Origin: a virus
IMG/VR virus record: IMGVR_UViG_3300017917_002116
Coordinates: 32,001-96,000 of that record
Direction: 5' to 3' (one strand)
DNA: 64,000 nucleotides
In this document: positions 14,426 to 62,786 of the stretch, in pieces
Position numbering within the stretch: the first letter of the stretch is position 1
Layout: each line of letters opens with the position of its first letter
Position numbers and translations under genes: made by a program
Notes under the pieces: model-generated
Databases searched by the model: none
Told to the model about the DNA's origin: nothing
Seen by the model: the letters and a program-made list of their open reading frames with translations, nothing else

Positions 14426-15061
14426 ATGGCATACGTACCACTAGTAGAAAGTCTAACATATGATCAAGCGGGTATGCGTACCCACTTGATTGAGAACGCC
14501 ACTGGCGGCAAAGACCTCTACATGGAAGGTATTTTCATTCAGGGCGGGGTACGCAATCAAAATCAACGTGTGTACCCTGTTAATGAGATTGCCAGGGCTT
14601 GTAATGCTATTTCTCAAAAAATTAAAGAAGGTTTCAGTGTGCTAGGCGAAGCCGATCATCCTGACGACCTGCAAGTTAACCTGGACCGTGTATCTCATAT
14701 GATTACAAATATCTATATGAATGAGAATAACGGAATTGGTAAGTTAAAAATATTACCTACACCTATGGGTAACATCGTTAAAACTCTATTAGAGAGTGGT
14801 GTTAAACTGGGTGTATCTAGTAGAGGTTCTGGTAACGTCAATGAATCTGGTGGCGTTACAGATTTCGAAATTGTCACGGTAGATATCGTGGCGCAACCAA
14901 GTGCTCCGGATGCATATCCTAAGGCCATATATGAACGTGTGCAGGGCGCAAGACGTCGTGGCGTTCTAATGGACTTAGCCGAGGCGGTCAGATATGATCC
15001 AAAAGCACAAAAACACCTCAAGGAAGAGGTTCTCAGGTTCATCGATAACCTAAAGAAATAA
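14426..15061 (+). CDS. gp21: Prohead protease
   Basis: MEGIFIQG..RNQNQRVYP, GEADHP, VSHMI, GVSSRGSG, DIVAQPSAPDAY. Confidence 0.95.
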   Translation: MAYVPLVESLTYDQAGMRTHLIENATGGKDLYMEGIFIQGGVRNQNQRVYPVNEIARACNAISQKIKEGFSVLGEADHPDDLQVNLDRVSHMITNIYMNENNGIGKLKILPTPMGNIVKTLLESGVKLGVSSRGSGNVNESGGVTDFEIVTVDIVAQPSAPDAYPKAIYERVQGARRRGVLMDLAEAVRYDPKAQKHLKEEVLRFIDNLKK

Positions 15062-15068
15062 GGGGAAA

Positions 15069-16175
15069 ATGATGAGCAATATAAAAGAACTATTCGGCTC
15101 TGGGGTTTTATCTGAGGAAGTTCAAAGCCAATTACAAGAGGCTTGGGAATCCAAGGTCCAACAACTACACGAAGAAGTAGAAGCAAATCTGCGTGAAGAA
15201 TTCAGCCAGCGTTATGAGCATGACAAAGGCCTAATTATTGAAGCCGCAGACAAGATGATTACAGAAGCAATTCGTAAAGAAATCGAAGAGTTTGCCCAAG
15301 ACAAGCGTGATGTTGTAGAAGCCAAAGTTGCGTATAAAAAGCAAATGAAAGAGCATGCTCAATTGCTCAATAAGTTTGTTATGGAACGTATGGCTGCTGA
15401 GATCAAGGAACTCAGAGAAGACCGTTCTACACAGAAACAGAATTTCGCTAAATTAGAGGAATTCGCTCTGCGTAAACTATCCAGCGAGTTGAAAGAACTT
15501 AAAGAAGATGAGCAGAAACTTGTACAGGCTCGTGTACAAATGGTTTCCGAAGGCAAGAAATTGCTAGCAGAAGCCAAGAAGAAGTTCGTCAAAGAAGCCG
15601 CTGCTAAGGCAGAAAAACTATTGAGTGAAACTCTACGTACTGAAATTACTCAGTTGCGTGAAGACATTCAGACAAGCAGAGAAAATGCATTCGGTCGCAA
15701 GATCATGGAAGCATTTGCTGCTGAGTTTATGGCTAGTGGTTTTGCTGATGGCACACAAGTCAAGAAGCTGGGTGATCAAATGGCTAAACTAAAGAAACAG
15801 CTAGATGAAACAGCATCTCTTGTAGAGTCTAAGAATCAAGAATTGGCTCAAGCTCAATCTAAGATTCGCATTGCTGAAGATGCTGTTAAGCGTCAGGCAA
15901 TCATGCATGAATTGGTAGCTCCACTTGGAAAAGAGAAGCGCGACATTATGGAAGATCTGTTGAAGACAACTAAGACAGAGAATCTACGCGAAGCTTACAG
16001 CAAGTATCTACCTGCGGTACTTAACGAGAAAACAGTGACTACAAAGAGCAAGGCTGTTATCTCTGAAAGCGCAGTATCTCAGAAGACTGAGGTAACTGGT
16101 AATAAAACTTCTAGTGAGGACTCTGCCCCTGCAGATATTATATCACTTAGAAAATTAGCCGGAATAGGAAAGTAA
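15069..16175 (+). CDS. gp22: Prohead scaffolding protein
   Basis: Long coiled coil between protease and capsid genes; FGRKIMEAFAAE. Confidence 0.85.
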   Translation: MMSNIKELFGSGVLSEEVQSQLQEAWESKVQQLHEEVEANLREEFSQRYEHDKGLIIEAADKMITEAIRKEIEEFAQDKRDVVEAKVAYKKQMKEHAQLLNKFVMERMAAEIKELREDRSTQKQNFAKLEEFALRKLSSELKELKEDEQKLVQARVQMVSEGKKLLAEAKKKFVKEAAAKAEKLLSETLRTEITQLREDIQTSRENAFGRKIMEAFAAEFMASGFADGTQVKKLGDQMAKLKKQLDETASLVESKNQELAQAQSKIRIAEDAVKRQAIMHELVAPLGKEKRDIMEDLLKTTKTENLREAYSKYLPAVLNEKTVTTKSKAVISESAVSQKTEVTGNKTSSEDSAPADIISLRKLAGIGK

Positions 16176-16191: not shown

Positions 16192-17364
16192 ATGTCCGAA
16201 AAACTTTTCGAGTCCCAGAACTGGTCTGCAACAAAAGACGTTCTTCTAGAAGGACTCAATGGCAACCGTAAGGCTGTCATGGAAGCTGTGTTAGAAAACA
16301 CACGCAAAAACATTATGGAAAATGCGTCTGCTGGCGCCACACAAAGCGGTAACTTTGCTGTTCTAAACAAAGTTATTCTTCCAGTAATTCGACGTGTTAT
16401 GCCAACAGTTATCGCTAACGAAATCATCGGCGTTCAGCCAATGACAGGTCCTGTTGGTCAGATTCACACTCTACGTGTACGTTACGCTGAAACTGCTGCT
16501 GGTGTTACAGCCGGTACAGAAGCTCTAAGCCCATTCGATATCGCTAAGGCTTACAGCGGCAATGGTAACCAGAGTGATCCAGCTGGTGAAACAACAGCTA
16601 CAATGGAAGGTGCTATTGGTCGTAAACTAAGCATCCAGATTCTAAAGCAAACAGTTGAAGCTAAGACACGTAAGATGTCTGCTCGCTGGACTTTTGAAGC
16701 TGCTCAAGATGCTCAAGCTATGCACGGTCTTGATGTTGAAGCAGAAATCATGGCTGCTCTAGCACAAGAAATCACAGCTGAAATCGACCAAGAGATCCTA
16801 GGCAAGTTGATGACTCTAGCTGGTACAGCTACTCACACATTCGACCAGAACGGTAGCTTCACAGGTACACCTACATATGTTGGTGACCAGCACGCTGTTC
16901 TAGCAATCCAGATCAATGATGTTGCTAACAAGATCGCTCAGCGTACACGCCGTGGCGCTGGTAACTTCGTAGTTGTAAGCCCAACAGCTTTAACAGTACT
17001 ACAAAGTGCTACAACATCTGCATTCGCACGTACAACAGAAGGTACATTCGAAGCACCTACAAACACCAAGTTCGTTGGTACTCTAAACAGCAGCGTAAAA
17101 GTTTACGTAAACAGCTATGCTGACAGTACAGCTCCTGTACTAGTTGGTTACAAGGGTCCTAACGAGATGGATGCAGCAGCGTTCTACTGCCCATACATCC
17201 CTCTAATGAGCTCTGGTGTTGTTCTTGATCCTAACACAATGGAACCAGTTGTGTCCTTCATGACACGTTATGGTTACGTTGAGTTGACAAATACTGCTAG
17301 CTCTCTAGGTAACGCAGCTGACTACCTAGGCAAGATCGCTATCGGTACAATCAAGTACGCTTAA
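16192..17364 (+). CDS. gp23: Major capsid protein
   Basis: IRRVMPTVIANEIIGVQPMTGPVGQI, AQDAQAMHGLDVEAE, TRRGAGN, FYCPYIPL, FMTRYG. Confidence 0.97.
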   Translation: MSEKLFESQNWSATKDVLLEGLNGNRKAVMEAVLENTRKNIMENASAGATQSGNFAVLNKVILPVIRRVMPTVIANEIIGVQPMTGPVGQIHTLRVRYAETAAGVTAGTEALSPFDIAKAYSGNGNQSDPAGETTATMEGAIGRKLSIQILKQTVEAKTRKMSARWTFEAAQDAQAMHGLDVEAEIMAALAQEITAEIDQEILGKLMTLAGTATHTFDQNGSFTGTPTYVGDQHAVLAIQINDVANKIAQRTRRGAGNFVVVSPTALTVLQSATTSAFARTTEGTFEAPTNTKFVGTLNSSVKVYVNSYADSTAPVLVGYKGPNEMDAAAFYCPYIPLMSSGVVLDPNTMEPVVSFMTRYGYVELTNTASSLGNAADYLGKIAIGTIKYA

Positions 17365-38291: not shown

Positions 38292-39503
38292 ATGAAACGA
38301 ACAGTAAAACAAATTGAACACGGCAAGACTGCATGGCGATTTGCCGATCCAGTGAAGCCACTGCATAATCGAAATGTCGACGCTAAACAACTGGGTGATG
38401 AGCCGCAGTACCCCGACGTCAAAGTGCAAGATGAGTGGACTCACAGTGAGTACACTTCCAAACTGATGCGTAGTCTTAACTGGTATAACGCCACGCAGGA
38501 TTACAAGACTTCTTATTCTTGGCTTAGCCAATTCCTAGAGCGTAATCCACGTAGGCATCTCCTGGCGGCCGCCATCAAGAGCGGTGACGTTCGAGTACCT
38601 CCTACTATTGGCTTTGCCCTACGTGCCGGCCGAGTAGGCATGAAACTGCGATTCCAGACACTTAGGTCTGTGGTGCGTATCCTGCGAGAGTCACAGGTAG
38701 AAAAAGAAGCCAGTATCCTGTCACCTGCCAAGGAGAAAGCAGAACAGGAAGAAGTCAAAGTAAAAACACCCAACATCCAGGATCGTCTTGCAGAAAAGGC
38801 CCGTGAAGCCGCAGGTGAGATCGAAGGACGTTTTGACGACTTTATCACCACCAATGAATTCAAAGGTGACCCCAAAGCCGTTGAAGTGTTGAGCCAGTTT
38901 AACGTGCAGCCTGCTCACGTTAAAACCATTCTGTCACTGGCAGATCGACGTCTTGCCGAGTATAATGAAGTACTTGCAGGCAAAGATGGACAACTGGTTG
39001 AAGCATACAGCCACTATGGCAAGCGTCAACTTAATGCTGTCGTCAAATGGTGGCAACAGGTCATTGCAGACTGCAATAGTTATGGTGTGATCAAGAAAGC
39101 CAGCAAGGCACCGCGTAAGAAGAAGGCAGTGCCTCCGGAAAAAGTCGTGAGCAAGATGAAATTCCTCAAGGAATTCGCCGAGCTCAAACTGAAGAGTATT
39201 GATGCCACGCAGATTCTGACTGCACAAGAACTCTGGATCTATAACACAAAGACTCGCAAACTCGGCATCTACATTGTAGACCAATATGCAGGTGCACTGG
39301 GTGTCAAAGGCACAACCATCCTGGGCTTTGATGCGGTGGCAAGTGTGCAGAAGACTCTACGCAAACCTAAAGAACAACTCAAAGAGTGGGCCAGCAACGG
39401 CAAGCCCGCGGCAAAGAAATGGTTTAAAGGTGTTAAAAGTGTGGAGACCAAGCTCAACGGCCGTATCAATGCGGATATGATCCTGCTGAAAGCCTACAAA
39501 TGA
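38292..39503 (+). CDS. Conserved T4-like phage hypothetical protein (basic, probably nucleic-acid binding)
   Basis: 403 aa; LNWYN, PNIQDRL, ELWIYNTKTRKL, SVQKTLRKP, LNGRIN. Confidence 0.65.
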   Translation: MKRTVKQIEHGKTAWRFADPVKPLHNRNVDAKQLGDEPQYPDVKVQDEWTHSEYTSKLMRSLNWYNATQDYKTSYSWLSQFLERNPRRHLLAAAIKSGDVRVPPTIGFALRAGRVGMKLRFQTLRSVVRILRESQVEKEASILSPAKEKAEQEEVKVKTPNIQDRLAEKAREAAGEIEGRFDDFITTNEFKGDPKAVEVLSQFNVQPAHVKTILSLADRRLAEYNEVLAGKDGQLVEAYSHYGKRQLNAVVKWWQQVIADCNSYGVIKKASKAPRKKKAVPPEKVVSKMKFLKEFAELKLKSIDATQILTAQELWIYNTKTRKLGIYIVDQYAGALGVKGTTILGFDAVASVQKTLRKPKEQLKEWASNGKPAAKKWFKGVKSVETKLNGRINADMILLKAYK

Positions 39504-40642
39504 AGCGAACGTTACTCGCACTAGCGGTTGCCGGCTTCCTTAGCGCATGCGGTGGGGGAGGCGGCACAGCAGAAGCGATACCTATTAAGCAACCTGCCGA
39601 TCTTGGCATCGCATGTACACAAGCAACGGATTCTAATTATCTAGATATACCCCCAATTTATAAATTCGGAGGCCTACTCAGTAATTGGTCAAACGGTGAT
39701 AGTGTGCCAGGCAAGTTAGATGGAGAACATTTTACATGGGCAGTATCTAATTTTAGTGCTATTGCTAGCGAACAGAATAATTCAGTACTGAAATCTAGGA
39801 TTACAACTAGTATCCATCGTTGGGCGCAAGCAGATGCTTATCAAGGCAGTCGTTGGTGTTGGTCTCCTAGTAAAGGCTGGGACTCTGCTTGTACACAATG
39901 GGTTGATCCAAACGGCAACGATTTTAGTGCTATTCAGGATCAAGGATATATCCAACAAAATGTAGAAGCAATACGTAGAGCCTATGCTTTGATATCAGAT
40001 TGGGCAAAAGTCAATGAGCCCGCCAAGCATGCTAAAATTACCAATTGGTTGAGCTATTTTGAAGTTAATAGCCCTCCGCCTGACAGGGTGTTTTTTGGTT
40101 TGGGCATGGGAAGATATCATTGGAGGATACAACAGGTCAGTGACACAGCCGGCCCGGCCGCCACAGTGCCTCTGGTACGCAACCTCTTGGATGGTATTCT
40201 ACCCCTAATCAATGATGATGGTTCAATTGCTGAACGGACCTCCAGGGGTAATAGGGCAATGTGGTATCATTATACTTCATTAAATGAAATAATGACATCA
40301 ATGTACCTGGCCAAACAGGTAAATGTTGCAATTAATCCTCTGTTAGAAACAAGACTGCACAAAGCCGTTGAGCTTTTTCTGAACACATTGGACAATCCTG
40401 CTTTTATTATTCCTTGGGCACGAGCAGGTTATAATAACGGCGGTGATGGGTCGACACAGAATTTTAATTTTAGCAACTGGTACAATGACCCCTATGCAGG
40501 TTCTTGGGTATATCTATACACTAATTGGTATCCCGCCCATGCTAATACACCAAGGTTGAAACAGAAGGTACCCATGGGATCAACTACATCTGCATCCTTG
40601 GACACACAATTTGGTGTCCCATTAGGTTGTACTCTGTATTAA
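39500..40642 (+). CDS. Lipoprotein with alginate-lyase-like (PL5/PF05426-type) domain
   Basis: Lipobox LSA-C followed by GGGGG; DDGSIAERTSRGNRAMWYHYTSL resembles the PL5 catalytic-Tyr segment. Confidence 0.6.
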   Translation: MKRTLLALAVAGFLSACGGGGGTAEAIPIKQPADLGIACTQATDSNYLDIPPIYKFGGLLSNWSNGDSVPGKLDGEHFTWAVSNFSAIASEQNNSVLKSRITTSIHRWAQADAYQGSRWCWSPSKGWDSACTQWVDPNGNDFSAIQDQGYIQQNVEAIRRAYALISDWAKVNEPAKHAKITNWLSYFEVNSPPPDRVFFGLGMGRYHWRIQQVSDTAGPAATVPLVRNLLDGILPLINDDGSIAERTSRGNRAMWYHYTSLNEIMTSMYLAKQVNVAINPLLETRLHKAVELFLNTLDNPAFIIPWARAGYNNGGDGSTQNFNFSNWYNDPYAGSWVYLYTNWYPAHANTPRLKQKVPMGSTTSASLDTQFGVPLGCTLY

Positions 40643-40688: not shown

Positions 40689-41435
40689 ATGAGTGTAAAA
40701 GACGATATTATCAAAGAAATAGAACTACGTTTGGGAGGCGGTATGGTGGACGTTGAACTTGATTCAGCGCACTACGAGTTGGCTATTACTTCTGCCCTTA
40801 GAAAATATAGACAGCGAAGTCAACGCGGCACCAATGAAAAATTCATCGAACTAAACATAAAGAATGAGCAACAAGAATATCAATTACCACAGAATGTGAT
40901 CATGGTTCGCGATGTTCTAATGCGACAGACAGGAACAATAGGCGCAGGAACTACAGGTGTTGACTTTGATCCCTTTGACGCCATGTATCTGAATAACATG
41001 TTGCTACAGAACAGTATGAATTTCGCAGGCCTGCAGAACTACGAGTTTTACGCACACCGCAGAGAATTAATTGCTCGTATGTTTGGTGGCTATGTAACCT
41101 TTAACTTTAATCAAAACGACAAGAAGATTTTTATACACAAGAAGTTCAAGTCAGATGACAAGGCGTTTGTTTGGTGCTTTGTGGATCGTGACGATGAAGA
41201 TTTATTAAACGATAATTATGCCAATCCCTGGCTTAAAGACTATGCGTTTGCCAAGGCTAAATTTATGTTGGGCGAGGCCCGTAGTAAGTTTAGTACTATT
41301 GCTGGTCCACAAGGTGGCACCAGTCTTAACGGAGATAACCTCAAAAGCGAAGCACAGGCAGAACTTGAAAAACTAGAAGAAGATCTAAAAACCTACGCAG
41401 AGGGTGGAACACCTCTGGGATTCATAATAGGGTAA
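40689..41435 (+). CDS. gp13: Neck protein (gp13-like)
   Basis: RLGGGMVDVELD, WLKDYAFAKAK.MLGEARSKF..IAGPQGG.SLNG; late TAAATA at 40664-40669. Confidence 0.88.
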   Translation: MSVKDDIIKEIELRLGGGMVDVELDSAHYELAITSALRKYRQRSQRGTNEKFIELNIKNEQQEYQLPQNVIMVRDVLMRQTGTIGAGTTGVDFDPFDAMYLNNMLLQNSMNFAGLQNYEFYAHRRELIARMFGGYVTFNFNQNDKKIFIHKKFKSDDKAFVWCFVDRDDEDLLNDNYANPWLKDYAFAKAKFMLGEARSKFSTIAGPQGGTSLNGDNLKSEAQAELEKLEEDLKTYAEGGTPLGFIIG

Positions 41436-41438
41436 TTT

Positions 41439-41870
41439 ATGAGAATAAGTGAAATATTAAACGAATTAGATCGTAGAGGTTTCCTACGAGGACTAGCCGC
41501 CGCGGCATTAACAGGAGCGGCAGGAACCGCGGCCGCAAGAGTAGTACCCGGACAAGATGATCCAAATATCAATCGTCTAACAGGTAAGCCCAATGCCGCA
41601 CCTGGTACTAACAATGAACCGCCTGCATCAAGTGCACAAATGCCAAATCAAAATTTGGAAACTGCTGAAAAAGTAGACCGCACAGATGATGGCATCATTA
41701 TCACACATAATGGCAAACAGTATCAGGCAGTAGAAGTGCCCAAGGACGGCCCAACACCTCGCGGCGCCCAAATGATTAAGGTGCAACAAGCACAATTAGG
41801 CATGCGAGGGATAGGCAACTATACAACTTACCTATTACCAAACGGACGAGCTTACATCTATTCTAAATGA
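41439..41870 (+). CDS. Late protein with twin-arginine (Tat) signal peptide
   Basis: MRISEILNE-LDRRGFLRG-LAAAALTGAAGTAAA. Confidence 0.7.
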   Translation: MRISEILNELDRRGFLRGLAAAALTGAAGTAAARVVPGQDDPNINRLTGKPNAAPGTNNEPPASSAQMPNQNLETAEKVDRTDDGIIITHNGKQYQAVEVPKDGPTPRGAQMIKVQQAQLGMRGIGNYTTYLLPNGRAYIYSK

Positions 41871-42058
41871 ATCCAGAAGAATTAAGAAAACTCGCCGGCA
41901 TAGACAAAACAGCTACTAGCCCTATTAGCGGAGAAATAGGCACAACCAAAGGCGAGTACATGCGTAAACACAATATACAACCAGGCACAGACGAATGGTT
42001 CAAGTTATGGTTCGCCCGGCCTAGTCTAACTGGTGAAAATCCTACTCCTAAAAAGTAA
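41867..42058 (+). CDS. Small conserved phage protein
   Basis: ELRKLAGI..NIQPGTDEWFKLWF. Confidence 0.65.
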   Translation: MNPEELRKLAGIDKTATSPISGEIGTTKGEYMRKHNIQPGTDEWFKLWFARPSLTGENPTPKK

Positions 42059-42066
42059 AAAACTTA

Positions 42067-42095
42067 TAGACAAATAGATCAAGGTACTATATACT
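42067..42095 (+). promoter_or_regulatory. sigma70-type promoter, probably leaderless transcript
   Basis: TAGACA-N17-TATACT, ATG 6 nt downstream. Confidence 0.7.
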
Positions 42096-42101
42096 AGTAC
42101 G

Positions 42102-42590
42102 ATGATAATTTACCTTGACATGGATGATGTAGTAGCAGACTGGATGGGTCTAGCCAAAACTATAGTCAATAGAAACTGGAATTATGGAGAAAGAATTCCA
42201 GATTCAGATTGGAAAAAACTCAAATATAATCCAAGATTCTATAGAAACATTCCTCTTAAAAAGGGTGCAGTAGACCTGGTAAATTATTGTAGGAATTTAT
42301 TGTCCGAAAATAAAATAGACGGGCTGTATTTTTTAACAGCACTCCCACATGATTATTCCATGCCCCATGCAGCTTACGACAAAGTTCTTTGGGCACAAGA
42401 GCACTTTCCTGATATCCCTGTATTTTTTGGACCCTTTAGTCATGACAAATGGCGCCATTGTACGCCAGGCGATATACTAATAGATGATAGATCGAGTAAT
42501 GTAAGTGAATGGATTTCTGCTGGCGGCATCGCACACAGATATACCACGTGGGAAAATTGTAAACCTTGGTTAGAGGAAATTTTTAAATGA
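42102..42590 (+). CDS. HAD-family 5'(3')-deoxyribonucleotidase-like protein
   Basis: IYLDMDDVVAD, FLTA, K..W, ILIDD. Confidence 0.85.
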   Translation: MIIYLDMDDVVADWMGLAKTIVNRNWNYGERIPDSDWKKLKYNPRFYRNIPLKKGAVDLVNYCRNLLSENKIDGLYFLTALPHDYSMPHAAYDKVLWAQEHFPDIPVFFGPFSHDKWRHCTPGDILIDDRSSNVSEWISAGGIAHRYTTWENCKPWLEEIFK

Positions 42591-50711: not shown

Positions 50712-51113
50712 ATGAAGCTTCACGAAATAATCACCGAAGATAGGAATTATACTAAAACGCATGGGCGCATGGATAAGAGCTACTCCCAGGTTCTGCCCAG
50801 CACGCACCTTGTGGCTGGTACGGCAGATAGATTCTACGATCTATATAGAATAAGCATGAGAACTGCCATGGCAGATGGTAAGAATATGCCCAAATTCGAA
50901 CCAGAAAGCTGGGTTGGTAGAAATAACACCATGCACCCTTATACCAAAGAAGAAGCAGACATGCTCAAACATGCCTATGCTGCCACAGGGGTACAATGGA
51001 CAGATGAACTGCATCCAAATAGTGAAAACCGTAGTTTAGAACCCGATGACACCTATACAGTTAGTCCCGTGGCCTCCGGATGGAAAAAGAAACGACGCAG
51101 GAGTGATAAATAA
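50712..51113 (+). CDS. Probable internal head protein
   Basis: N-terminal MKLHEIITE resembles the T4 capsid-targeting leader. Confidence 0.5.
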   Translation: MKLHEIITEDRNYTKTHGRMDKSYSQVLPSTHLVAGTADRFYDLYRISMRTAMADGKNMPKFEPESWVGRNNTMHPYTKEEADMLKHAYAATGVQWTDELHPNSENRSLEPDDTYTVSPVASGWKKKRRRSDK

Positions 51114-60719: not shown

Positions 60720-62786
60720 ATGAAACTCCGTCCTACTCTTATTGCACTTGCAGTATCAGCGATAGCAGGAAGTGTGCAGGCACAGGTCTTTACCAATCAG
60801 GAAACTGTTGCTAAGACAAATTACCTGAATGCTATTGGTGCACCGGCAGCATGGGCCCGTGGCATTACAGGTAAAGGAGGTGTGATCGCAGTTCTGGATA
60901 ATGGTTTTGCTGTCAATCACACCGACATTAAACCCAACGTCCTTGCCTACAAGAATTTTTATGTAGGCGACACCTACACATGGGGCTTGCATGGAACGCA
61001 GATGGCCAGCATTGCCGCAGGCGTAGCCAACGGCGCAGGCACTGTGGGCGTGGCACCCGACGCTAAATTGATTCTTGGACAAGTCGGTACTGGCGGAACC
61101 AGTCCCAGCATCGACATGAATGCAGTTATCAAAGGTATGACCTGGGCTGAAGGTCTCGGTGCTAATGTTATTAACCTGAGTCTTGGTAGCAACTATGACT
61201 CTACGTTCAAGGCAGGCACTACGCAGATTGCTCCTGGTATTTTTAAGTCTGCTCCTGGTTACGGCACTATGTATGGTAACAGCCTGACTGACATGCTACA
61301 ATTTACCGGTGCCACAAAGAGCACTGTGATTGTTGCCAGCGCAGGTAATAGTGCCACACCTTATGCTCAATTTCCTGCGGCATTCGCAGTACAAACGGAC
61401 GCTAATGGCAATTTGATTATGGGCGGCCGAGTGCTGATCGTTGGTAATGTCAAGTCAGATGGCAAGGGCGGCTGGGTTATGGATGCTAGCAGTAATCGAG
61501 CAGGCACCCTCTGCCAGAAAATTGTTGCCAATGTTTGTCAAGACAAATACTATGTCAAAGACTTCTACGTCGTGGCTCCTGGAAATGCCATCTGGGGCGC
61601 AGTACCTGACGAAGCACGAACCGCGACTGCTATCAAAGCAGGTCTAACTAATGGTGTTGGTGGCGTAACAGGAACCAGTCCCAGTGCCGCGTTGGTTAGT
61701 GGCGGCATCGCGCTCATGCGCCAGGCCTGGCCGCAACTCAAGGCAGCACAATTGGTTAATCTTGTTTTAGACACTGCTACTCCTCTCGGTGACAGCAATG
61801 TCTACGGCAAGGGTATGGTGAACTTTGACAAGGCAACGCAACCTACAGCAGGCCTGAAATACACCACTGCTAGCCTTACTTCAGGCCCTACAGTGTCTGG
61901 TACTAGTGTACAAAACACAGGTGTTGCAGTATCAGGTAATGTAGGGGCCGCACTGAAAACCAGTAGTGTGTTGCAGAGCGTTCAGGTGGTTGATGGTTTG
62001 AATCGTAACTTTACCGCAGACTTTACCAAGGCAATCGGTGTTAATACTCCTGCAAATAGCCTTTACACTAGTCCCTATCTTGCAATGCAGAGTTTGGGCT
62101 ACAAGGAATTCACTGTGCCCATGGGCAAGGATAGTACTCTGACATTGATGCAGAGTTTTAATGGTGTAGCGGCACAATATGAAACTGGTTACAAGGAAGG
62201 TCGTATTAGTTTCCAGACCGGTACTATGACTGAACGCAACGGTTTCTTGAATAACTCTGGTACAGGCCTGTTTGGTATGGGCAATAGTGCTACCAGCTAT
62301 GCAATGATCGGTGGTAGTTACCCCATTGTTAGAAGTGTGGATCTGATCGGAAATTATGGTGTTGGTATTACTCGCACTAGTAACGCACAAGATAGCATGC
62401 TGGCCCTGAGCCCTACAATTATCAGCGATACCTGGAAACTGGGTATTGCCAAGAAGGAGATCTTCTTCAGCGGTAGTACACAAGATCAACTGACCTTGGC
62501 AGTGCATGGACCGGTGGCAGTGCGTCGTGGTTCTGCAGACGTGACCGCTGTGACTGGCTACACTTATTCAGGTGCAGAAGATGATGTGACTGCCAATCCG
62601 ATTATCAGCAAACAACGAGTCAACCTTGCGGCAGGACAACGCCAACAAGATCTGATTCTGAGCTATAGTGTTAGTGTAAGTAATAAGACTTATGCTGGTA
62701 TCAGTGTTGCCAAACAGTTTAATGTTGGTGGTATCGGCGGACAAACTGGATCGGCATTTGGTCTAATGGTGCGTAGTGTGTTCTAA
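60720..62786 (+). CDS. Secreted subtilisin-like (S8) serine protease with beta-barrel-like C-terminus
   Basis: Sec signal ending VQA; IAVLDNG (Asp), HGTQMA (His), SAGN (oxyanion), GTSPSA (Ser); terminal Phe. Confidence 0.88.
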   Translation: MKLRPTLIALAVSAIAGSVQAQVFTNQETVAKTNYLNAIGAPAAWARGITGKGGVIAVLDNGFAVNHTDIKPNVLAYKNFYVGDTYTWGLHGTQMASIAAGVANGAGTVGVAPDAKLILGQVGTGGTSPSIDMNAVIKGMTWAEGLGANVINLSLGSNYDSTFKAGTTQIAPGIFKSAPGYGTMYGNSLTDMLQFTGATKSTVIVASAGNSATPYAQFPAAFAVQTDANGNLIMGGRVLIVGNVKSDGKGGWVMDASSNRAGTLCQKIVANVCQDKYYVKDFYVVAPGNAIWGAVPDEARTATAIKAGLTNGVGGVTGTSPSAALVSGGIALMRQAWPQLKAAQLVNLVLDTATPLGDSNVYGKGMVNFDKATQPTAGLKYTTASLTSGPTVSGTSVQNTGVAVSGNVGAALKTSSVLQSVQVVDGLNRNFTADFTKAIGVNTPANSLYTSPYLAMQSLGYKEFTVPMGKDSTLTLMQSFNGVAAQYETGYKEGRISFQTGTMTERNGFLNNSGTGLFGMGNSATSYAMIGGSYPIVRSVDLIGNYGVGITRTSNAQDSMLALSPTIISDTWKLGIAKKEIFFSGSTQDQLTLAVHGPVAVRRGSADVTAVTGYTYSGAEDDVTANPIISKQRVNLAAGQRQQDLILSYSVSVSNKTYAGISVAKQFNVGGIGGQTGSAFGLMVRSVF

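Follow-up and report, generated by a model that had tools for sequence, protein, structure and literature searches.

A capsid-tag-like leader ahead of a Tat-type signal in a giant T4-like phage suggests that some virion-carried proteins may be sent on to the periplasm of the new host

Introduction

Why would a phage protein carry two addresses at its N-terminus, one resembling the tag of T4 internal proteins and the other a bacterial export signal? The question is raised by a 143-amino-acid ORF (positions 41439 to 41870, + strand) in a 64,000-nucleotide stretch of viral DNA, which was analyzed as a whole and is called the window below. The window comes from a 115-kb IMG/VR virus contig, about 32% complete according to CheckV, and its source is an uncultured giant T4-like phage. 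It encodes a head module of the T4 type, with a portal, a gp21-type protease, a scaffold and a major capsid protein, as well as a contractile tail, the sheath of which shares about 45% identity with its counterparts in the jumbo phages PA5oct and Atu_ph07.

In T4, the tag (CTS) MKTYQEFIAE ends in an L/I-x-E site that is cut by gp21, and it is the sole feature that the diverse internal proteins have in common (PMC8442874, PMC9026906, PMC3012670). Known injected phage proteins either act in the cytoplasm, as T4 IPI* and Alt do, or form a conduit for ejection, as in P22 and T7. A preliminary description of the ORF proposed a further fate, in which the protein would be packaged, trimmed, injected and then exported by the new host. 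From comparisons of sequences we put the probability of this reading at roughly 45%.

Results

The ATG of the ORF and the N-terminus MRISEILNELDRRGFLRGLAAAALTGAAGTAAARV are secure, because an in-frame stop lies two codons 5′ of the start. The protein begins MRISEILNE↓LDRRGFLRGLAAAALTGAAGTAAA↓RV, where the arrows mark proposed or predicted cuts. Its leader, MRISEILNE (aa 1 to 9; 41439 to 41465, + strand), resembles the T4 CTS and has the L-x-E cut motif at its end; ISE, at aa 3 to 5, is another candidate for cutting. In the family consensus, MRxxEILTEEQLxEL, the leader is 5 aa longer. Residues 10 to 33 (41466 to 41537, + strand) make up a Tat-type signal with LD-RR-GFLR, the h-region GLAAAALTGAAGTAAA and AAA at positions −3 to −1, which places the predicted signal-peptidase site at A31-A-A↓R34-V35 (41529 to 41543, + strand). 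It is followed by a predicted disordered region (aa 34 to 71; 41538 to 41651, + strand), in which the conserved linker RVxPGxDPxINRLTGKP precedes a variable Pro/Gln-rich stretch, and by a C-terminal six-strand beta domain (aa 72 to 143; 41652 to 41867, + strand), modeled by AlphaFold2 with a pLDDT of 86 to 93. The beta domain has no convincing match in the PDB (Foldseek, E > 0.2; VIA, Z ≤ 3.6), a search of the ESM Atlas found nothing, and the whole protein belongs to no family in Pfam or PHROGs. It has about 21 to 22 homologues, 18 of them close (50 to 75% identical), and none in cultured phages, as searched with megablast and tblastn in 50,697 phage records. A role of the beta domain in superinfection exclusion is a guess, as is the idea in the preliminary description that the protein enters the new host in folded form.

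The ORF starts 3 nt behind a head-tail adaptor (neck) gene (40689 to 41435, + strand; phrog_211, E = 8e−35), and the junction has no terminator-like site on the + strand. Its stop overlaps the start (ATGA) of a 63-aa gene (41867 to 42058, + strand), a homologue of which (BLASTP, 37% identity, E = 2e−8) is found among the clustered leader genes of the related contig L003 described below. The idea that the 63-aa gene is also a module of polyproteins was dropped, BLASTP giving no match. In PA5oct the order is adaptor, dNMP kinase, sheath, so that the 143-aa ORF, the 63-aa gene and the nucleotidase gene are insertions relative to that phage. The T4 late promoter motif TATAAATA occurs 4 times, versus 4.9 expected, and nowhere near the ORF. 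Given the insertion and this absence, the late operon assumed in the preliminary description is no more than plausible for the 143-aa ORF; the position directly behind the neck gene stands as described. A sigma-70-like promoter match (10/12) at window positions 42067 to 42095, just 5′ of the nucleotidase gene at 42102, means that the nucleotide-metabolism genes may be transcribed apart from the unit formed by the adaptor gene, the 143-aa ORF and the 63-aa gene. Two genes upstream of the ORF, at 39500 to 40642, the window encodes a lipoprotein-like protein with the lipobox LSAC followed by GGGGG and a weak Pfam match to alginate-lyase; farther on, at 60720 to 62786, it encodes a 688-aa protein with a classical Sec-type signal (MKLRPTLIALAVSAIAGSVQA↓Q).

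Is the second address a genuine Tat signal? NCBIfam TIGR01409 (TAT_signal_seq) matches residues 10 to 36 with 19.3 bits (cutoff, 16.7), and the twin-arginine consensus (S/T)-R-R-x-F-L-K at the n/h boundary is satisfied by D11-R-R-G-F-L-R17. The h-region consists of 16 uncharged residues with a mean Kyte-Doolittle hydropathy of 1.3, and A31, R34 and V35 are invariant across 22 homologues. Pfam PF10518 falls below its cutoff for the 143-aa protein (8.7 versus 22.7) and passes for the homologue P0003 (25.4). Like bacterial Tat signals (TIGR01409/PF10518), the segment thus combines RR-x-F-L-R with a weakly hydrophobic h-region and an AxA site; unlike them, it is phage-encoded, stands behind a capsid-tag-like acidic leader, and has the RR in a third of the homologues. 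With the start fixed, TIGR01409 above its cutoff and the leader recurring widely (see below), the capsid-tag-like leader ahead of a Tat signal noted in the preliminary description is confirmed.

The twin arginine itself is not conserved, a result that the preliminary description had named as one that would refute its reading. RRGFL is present in 6 of the 18 close homologues; the others have N/D-W-R/K-K and are three residues shorter at that point, while keeping the weak Ala/Gly segment (family mean hydropathy, 1.0 to 1.4) and the invariant AxA↓RV. The Tat consensus RRGFLRGL arises via this 3-residue insertion relative to the W-R-K homologues, and the tree, which is poorly resolved, implies between one and three changes in RR and neither shows nor excludes a monophyletic RR clade. 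Because so few homologues have the RR, we regard the twin arginine as a clade variant of a broader export-like cassette, the non-RR forms of which are apparently Sec-like.

Taken by itself, such a signal could mean that the producer cell simply exports the protein through Tat, for example to exclude superinfecting phages or to remodel the envelope, with the leader acting as the n-region and being inherited from tagged ancestors or kept for another purpose. Natural Tat signals frequently have n-regions of about 10 residues, and 11 residues are normal, which would allow export of the uncut precursor from the cell that makes it. The score above the TIGR01409 cutoff speaks for such export. So do the homologues P0002 and P0003, which have a shortened leader (MRIDEI) and resemble plain N-terminal Tat precursors, P0003 also passing Pfam TAT_signal. 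The phage encodes other exported proteins (the lipoprotein at 39500 and the Sec-signal protein at 60720), and the 143-aa gene lies among non-head genes; its location outside the head module counts against the packaging reading. We consider export in the producer cell the main rival to our reading, though a somewhat less probable one in view of three kinds of evidence presented in the following paragraphs: the distribution of the leader, the charge of the uncut n-regions, and the burial of related cassettes in long proteins.

The leader follows the pattern M-R/K-x-x-E-I/F-I/L-x-E, and its strict form occurs in 2 of the approximately 125 genes of the 115-kb contig. The second gene (50712 to 51113, + strand) encodes a 133-aa protein without known family, starting MKLHEIITE, and lies among late structural genes. 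Its homologue (37% identity, E = 1e−25) in G004 (IMGVR_UViG_3300046787_000200), a complete 352-kb relative, is also tagged (MRATEFVFE) and adjoins another tagged gene. G004 encodes a gp21-type head protease that is 63% identical to that of the window, and about 7 of its approximately 473 genes are leader genes, which are clustered. At G004 194866 to 199861, four consecutive genes encoding proteins of 288 to 792 aa start MRANEFLIE, MRLVEFVTE, MRALDFILE and MRATDFIIE.

When IMG/VR was scanned for MRxxEI[L/F]TE, about 75 of 81 matches fell at the start of an ORF, among the matches listed (80 loci). At least 74 leader-headed ORFs from the IMG/VR jumbo-phage contigs, again among the matches listed, fall into at least 20 unrelated cargo clusters, which include the DUF6267 family, DUF6321 proteins, and kinase-like, ParB-like and Gly-rich proteins. 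The kinase-like, ParB-like and DUF6267 cargo would act in the cytoplasm. Other leader families also have Gly/Ala-rich segments, and in 42 of 62 leaders the terminal TE is followed by Ala or Ser.

The related contig L003 (IMGVR_UViG_3300011339_000564) contains a row of unrelated genes starting MRITEILTE, MRANEFAVDE, MRAKEFITE and MRALEFLTE, and its lineage has 5 leader-tagged genes. Their hypervariable cluster (L003:9117-13461) lies between UV-endonuclease-like and sugar-metabolism genes and encodes a DUF6321 protein, a fusion of the export cassette with a GP88 domain, and kinase-like and ParB-like proteins; a SodA-like and a 60-aa gene are scattered among them. This cluster resembles the T4 internal-protein locus.

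In the family of the 143-aa protein, the leader ends in I6-L7-N8-E9 or its equivalent, with [LIVM]xE lying 2 to 5 residues before the basic pair in all 18 members. Judged by these comparisons, the leader is more than a chance n-region and behaves as a modular N-terminal tag like the T4 CTS. Its conservation in the family and its match to a tag on unrelated cytoplasm-type cargo argue against an n-region that serves export in the producer cell. The capsid-tag part of the preliminary description is hence borne out by comparison (at least 20 unrelated cargo families, the L/I-x-E end and a gp21-type protease), in distinction to RR conservation. Against the packaging reading, PA5oct, for which a virion proteome exists, has one weak leader-like gene, gp213, which carries no ESI-MS/MS note.

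If the leader is removed in the head, the enzyme would be the phage's gp21-type head maturation protease (14426 to 15061, + strand; phrog_207, E = 2e−59). It is followed by a scaffold-like protein (15069 to 16175, + strand; phrog_10922) and the major capsid protein (16192 to 17364, + strand; phrog_138). The scaffold-like protein has the densest [LIVM]xE[AGSDN] sites in the genome, with 16 in 368 aa versus about 2 expected (Poisson P = 4e−10); the protease has 8 in 211 aa (P = 3e−5), and all five cut-type sites of the capsid protein lie within aa 5 to 44, as in a propeptide. Since this concentration of sites in scaffold, protease and capsid propeptide is the T4 pattern, site enrichment suggests that the protease of the window probably retains the T4 specificity. 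One detail speaks against trimming of the 143-aa protein: the P1′ residue after E9 is Leu, whereas the enriched sites of the head proteins have A, G, S, D or N there.

A cut at the leader would also change the charge in front of the h-region. The net charge of the uncut n-region is ≤0 in 13 of the 18 family members, and −2 in 10 of them; once everything up to the end of the last [LIVM]xE is cut off, every one of the 18 has a charge of +1 or +2 there. The mostly acidic uncut n-regions are a further argument against export in the producer cell and are consistent with a signal that is masked until the leader is removed. Masking is weakened for the 143-aa protein itself, the n-region of which is already +1 before the cut and +2 after it.

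Relatives of the protein place the same signal in a different setting. Searching 1.8 billion representative proteins with a profile yielded 168 matches, and the cassette, consisting of an Ala/Gly h-region, AxA↓RV and usually PGxDPxINRLTGKP, was recognized in 118 of them. Most copies are internal, in proteins of 200 to 1650 aa that are composed of small modules with (Q)GVAEG-type linkers; Tat signals in relatives lie 40 to 240 residues deep in polyproteins. An [LIVM]-x-E motif lies just upstream of 117 of the 118 copies, typically as LDE↓GWKEKL. Cassettes that are buried behind such a motif in long proteins, sometimes two per chain, fit poorly with simple export in the producer cell. Hidden internal starts at P3 of buried cassettes were considered as well; the few codons available there, six in all (TTA three times, CTT, GTA and TTG), give no support to them, TTA, CTT and GTA not being start codons.

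The "RV" of the mature start follows AxA in 124 relatives and directly follows [LI]xE in all six relatives that have no h-region (P0088, P0152, P0104, P0066, P0081 and P0096). Because "RV" follows either motif, both junctions look like processing sites that would yield one common N-terminus. Two of the six begin with MKTLREYIDL, a sequence that resembles the T4 CTS even more closely, and three (P0088, P0104 and P0152) have the beta domain. It thus seems that the same cargo occurs both with an export address and without one, and the "RV" linker and its cargo are not always bound for the periplasm, which counts against our preferred reading.

The cassette architecture also bears on the possibility that the Ala/Gly segment is an uncleaved signal anchor, of the SAR type, that tethers the beta domain to the inner membrane or later releases it, in either cell. 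SAR domains are found in the T4 RI antiholin and in SAR endolysins, and the Gly/Ala-rich, weakly hydrophobic segment of the 143-aa protein resembles them: the mean hydropathy of 1.0 to 1.4 is within the SAR/Tat range, and a conserved small-xxx-small pattern could pack helices. Unlike SAR proteins, the protein has a full Tat consensus, and the identified neighbors (adaptor, nucleotidase and dNMP kinase) include no lysis gene. Cleavage is favored by the invariant AxA↓RV together with the h-region-less relatives that start at the equivalent "RV." In P0077 and P0116, moreover, each chain contains two cassettes of the same orientation, one Tat-type and one W-K-type, which contradicts a simple anchor; cutting fits this arrangement better than membrane anchoring, and separately released units make sense. 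We therefore regard an anchor as improbable.

If leader and Tat signal form a functional pair, they might be expected on other cargo, and a survey for the leader followed by RRxFL on unrelated proteins, as suggested in the preliminary description, was positive for an M48 protease, a 140-aa protein and a polyprotein. In L224 and L183, MRANEFISE↓AISRRDLLKG, which scores above the TIGR01409 cutoff, precedes a Peptidase_M48 domain. The gene (L224:4557-5231 and L183:4521-5210) encodes a small zinc protease (HELGH), has a GTG start and adjoins a leader-headed polyprotein gene. The M48 family includes envelope proteases, and we consider this enzyme, from its sequence, a candidate virion-delivered envelope protease. 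The contig L052 encodes a 140-aa protein of no assigned family that starts MKINEIIETQIDEI↓DRRGFLRGMG. In the leader-headed polyprotein of L158 (P0137), VDE↓ADMSRRGFLKG stands before a relative of the beta domain of the 143-aa protein, and LSE↓ and a basic DUF6321 module come next. A sister gene in L224 encodes the same polyprotein without the Tat signal and beta domain, which identifies this block as a cassette bounded by xE sites.

These signals also help to judge whether the 143-aa protein is instead a head-internal ejection protein, with a hydrophobic segment that inserts into the inner membrane and aids DNA entry, with no export by the host and with an incidental RR. The leader tag and the logic of the protease sites would suit such a protein, as would the Gly/Ala-rich segments in other leader families, and the ejection proteins of P22 and T7 do act in the envelope (PMC8402733). 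A full Tat consensus, RRGFLRGL, that came about through a 3-residue insertion is not what an incidental RR would predict, and Tat signals on other cargo are hard to explain without recognition by Tat. An ejection role of this kind is accordingly improbable as well.

Discussion

Our preferred reading is that the 143-aa protein is packaged, trimmed, injected and exported, and it can be laid out as a pathway of four steps. The protein would be made together with the neck gene, and its 9-residue T4-CTS-like leader would take it into the prohead core. There the gp21-type protease would cut after L7-N8-E9 (or after E5) and remove the acidic leader, so that the protein would now begin with LD-RR-GFLR, a minimal Tat signal. 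The trimmed protein would then be ejected with the DNA into the cytoplasm of the next host, where the Tat system would export it and signal peptidase I would cut AAA↓RV. The product would be a 109-aa periplasmic protein, comprising the RVxPGxDPxINRLTGKP linker and the beta domain, that presumably acts on the envelope early in infection. Relatives with W-R/K-K in place of RR would use the same cassette via a Sec-type route.

We also propose, tentatively and at somewhat less than even odds, that this is one case of a general two-step system. A CTS-like tag would load cargo into the head, either alone or as polyproteins, the protease would unmask Sec-type or Tat-type cassettes by cutting at [LIVM]-x-E sites immediately ahead of them, and re-export of some pieces to the periplasm of the new host would precede phage gene expression. 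A full-text literature search found no description of the leader motif, of the concept or of export cassettes as modules.

How does this compare with known systems? The closest parallel is with T4 IPI, IPII, IPIII and Alt, which share the tag pattern M-basic-x-x-E-hydrophobic-hydrophobic-x-E with its L/I-x-E end (PMC9026906, PMC3012670). As with the T4 internal proteins, the tag is attached to unrelated, fast-changing cargo, and a gp21-type protease, a scaffold and a capsid module are present. Unlike them, the 143-aa protein has a leader that is one residue shorter, and its packaging and cutting are predictions; it has no sequence homology to the T4 proteins. The T4 internal proteins, in contrast to the 143-aa protein, act in the cytoplasm and have no export signal.

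A second parallel is with polyvalent or multi-module injected phage proteins, reportedly described by Iyer, Burroughs, Anand, de Souza and Aravind in 2017. The phiKZ-like phages have inner-body or ejection proteins that are cut by a protease (PMC9026906). Like these proteins, the relatives of the 143-aa protein consist of interchangeable modules strung together with protease-type sites between them; unlike the polyvalent proteins, the 143-aa protein itself is a stand-alone version with a single cargo. One such module string, gp029 of cyanophage S-SCSM1, is annotated as "virion protein," and S-SCSM1 virions were analyzed by mass spectrometry; the label is not traceable to a peptide table, and gp029 matches the query mainly in its DUF6321 module, not in the beta domain.

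Eukaryotic viral polyproteins offer a third comparison, since some contain internal signals that are cut by the signal peptidase of the host. Here, too, a host signal peptidase would free a viral protein, but the signal would be unmasked by a capsid protease and not co-translationally.

Together, the modular leader, the export cassettes behind protease-type sites and the occurrence of both on other cargo suggest that part of the protein cargo of the virion may go on to the periplasm of the new host. If this is true, delivery would run from the virion through the cytoplasm to the envelope, and a viral protease would "unmask" a targeting signal of the host. In practical terms, the leader motif offers a simple means of listing proteins that may be injected as effectors across hundreds of uncultured jumbo phages, and the first candidates for envelope targets are the M48 protease and the beta domain of the 143-aa protein. 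A virion-carried protein that uses the Tat or Sec machinery of the recipient would be a new route by which a phage alters the cell envelope within minutes of infection, with the exclusion of rivals, the trimming of receptors and the blocking of envelope-linked defenses as possible uses.
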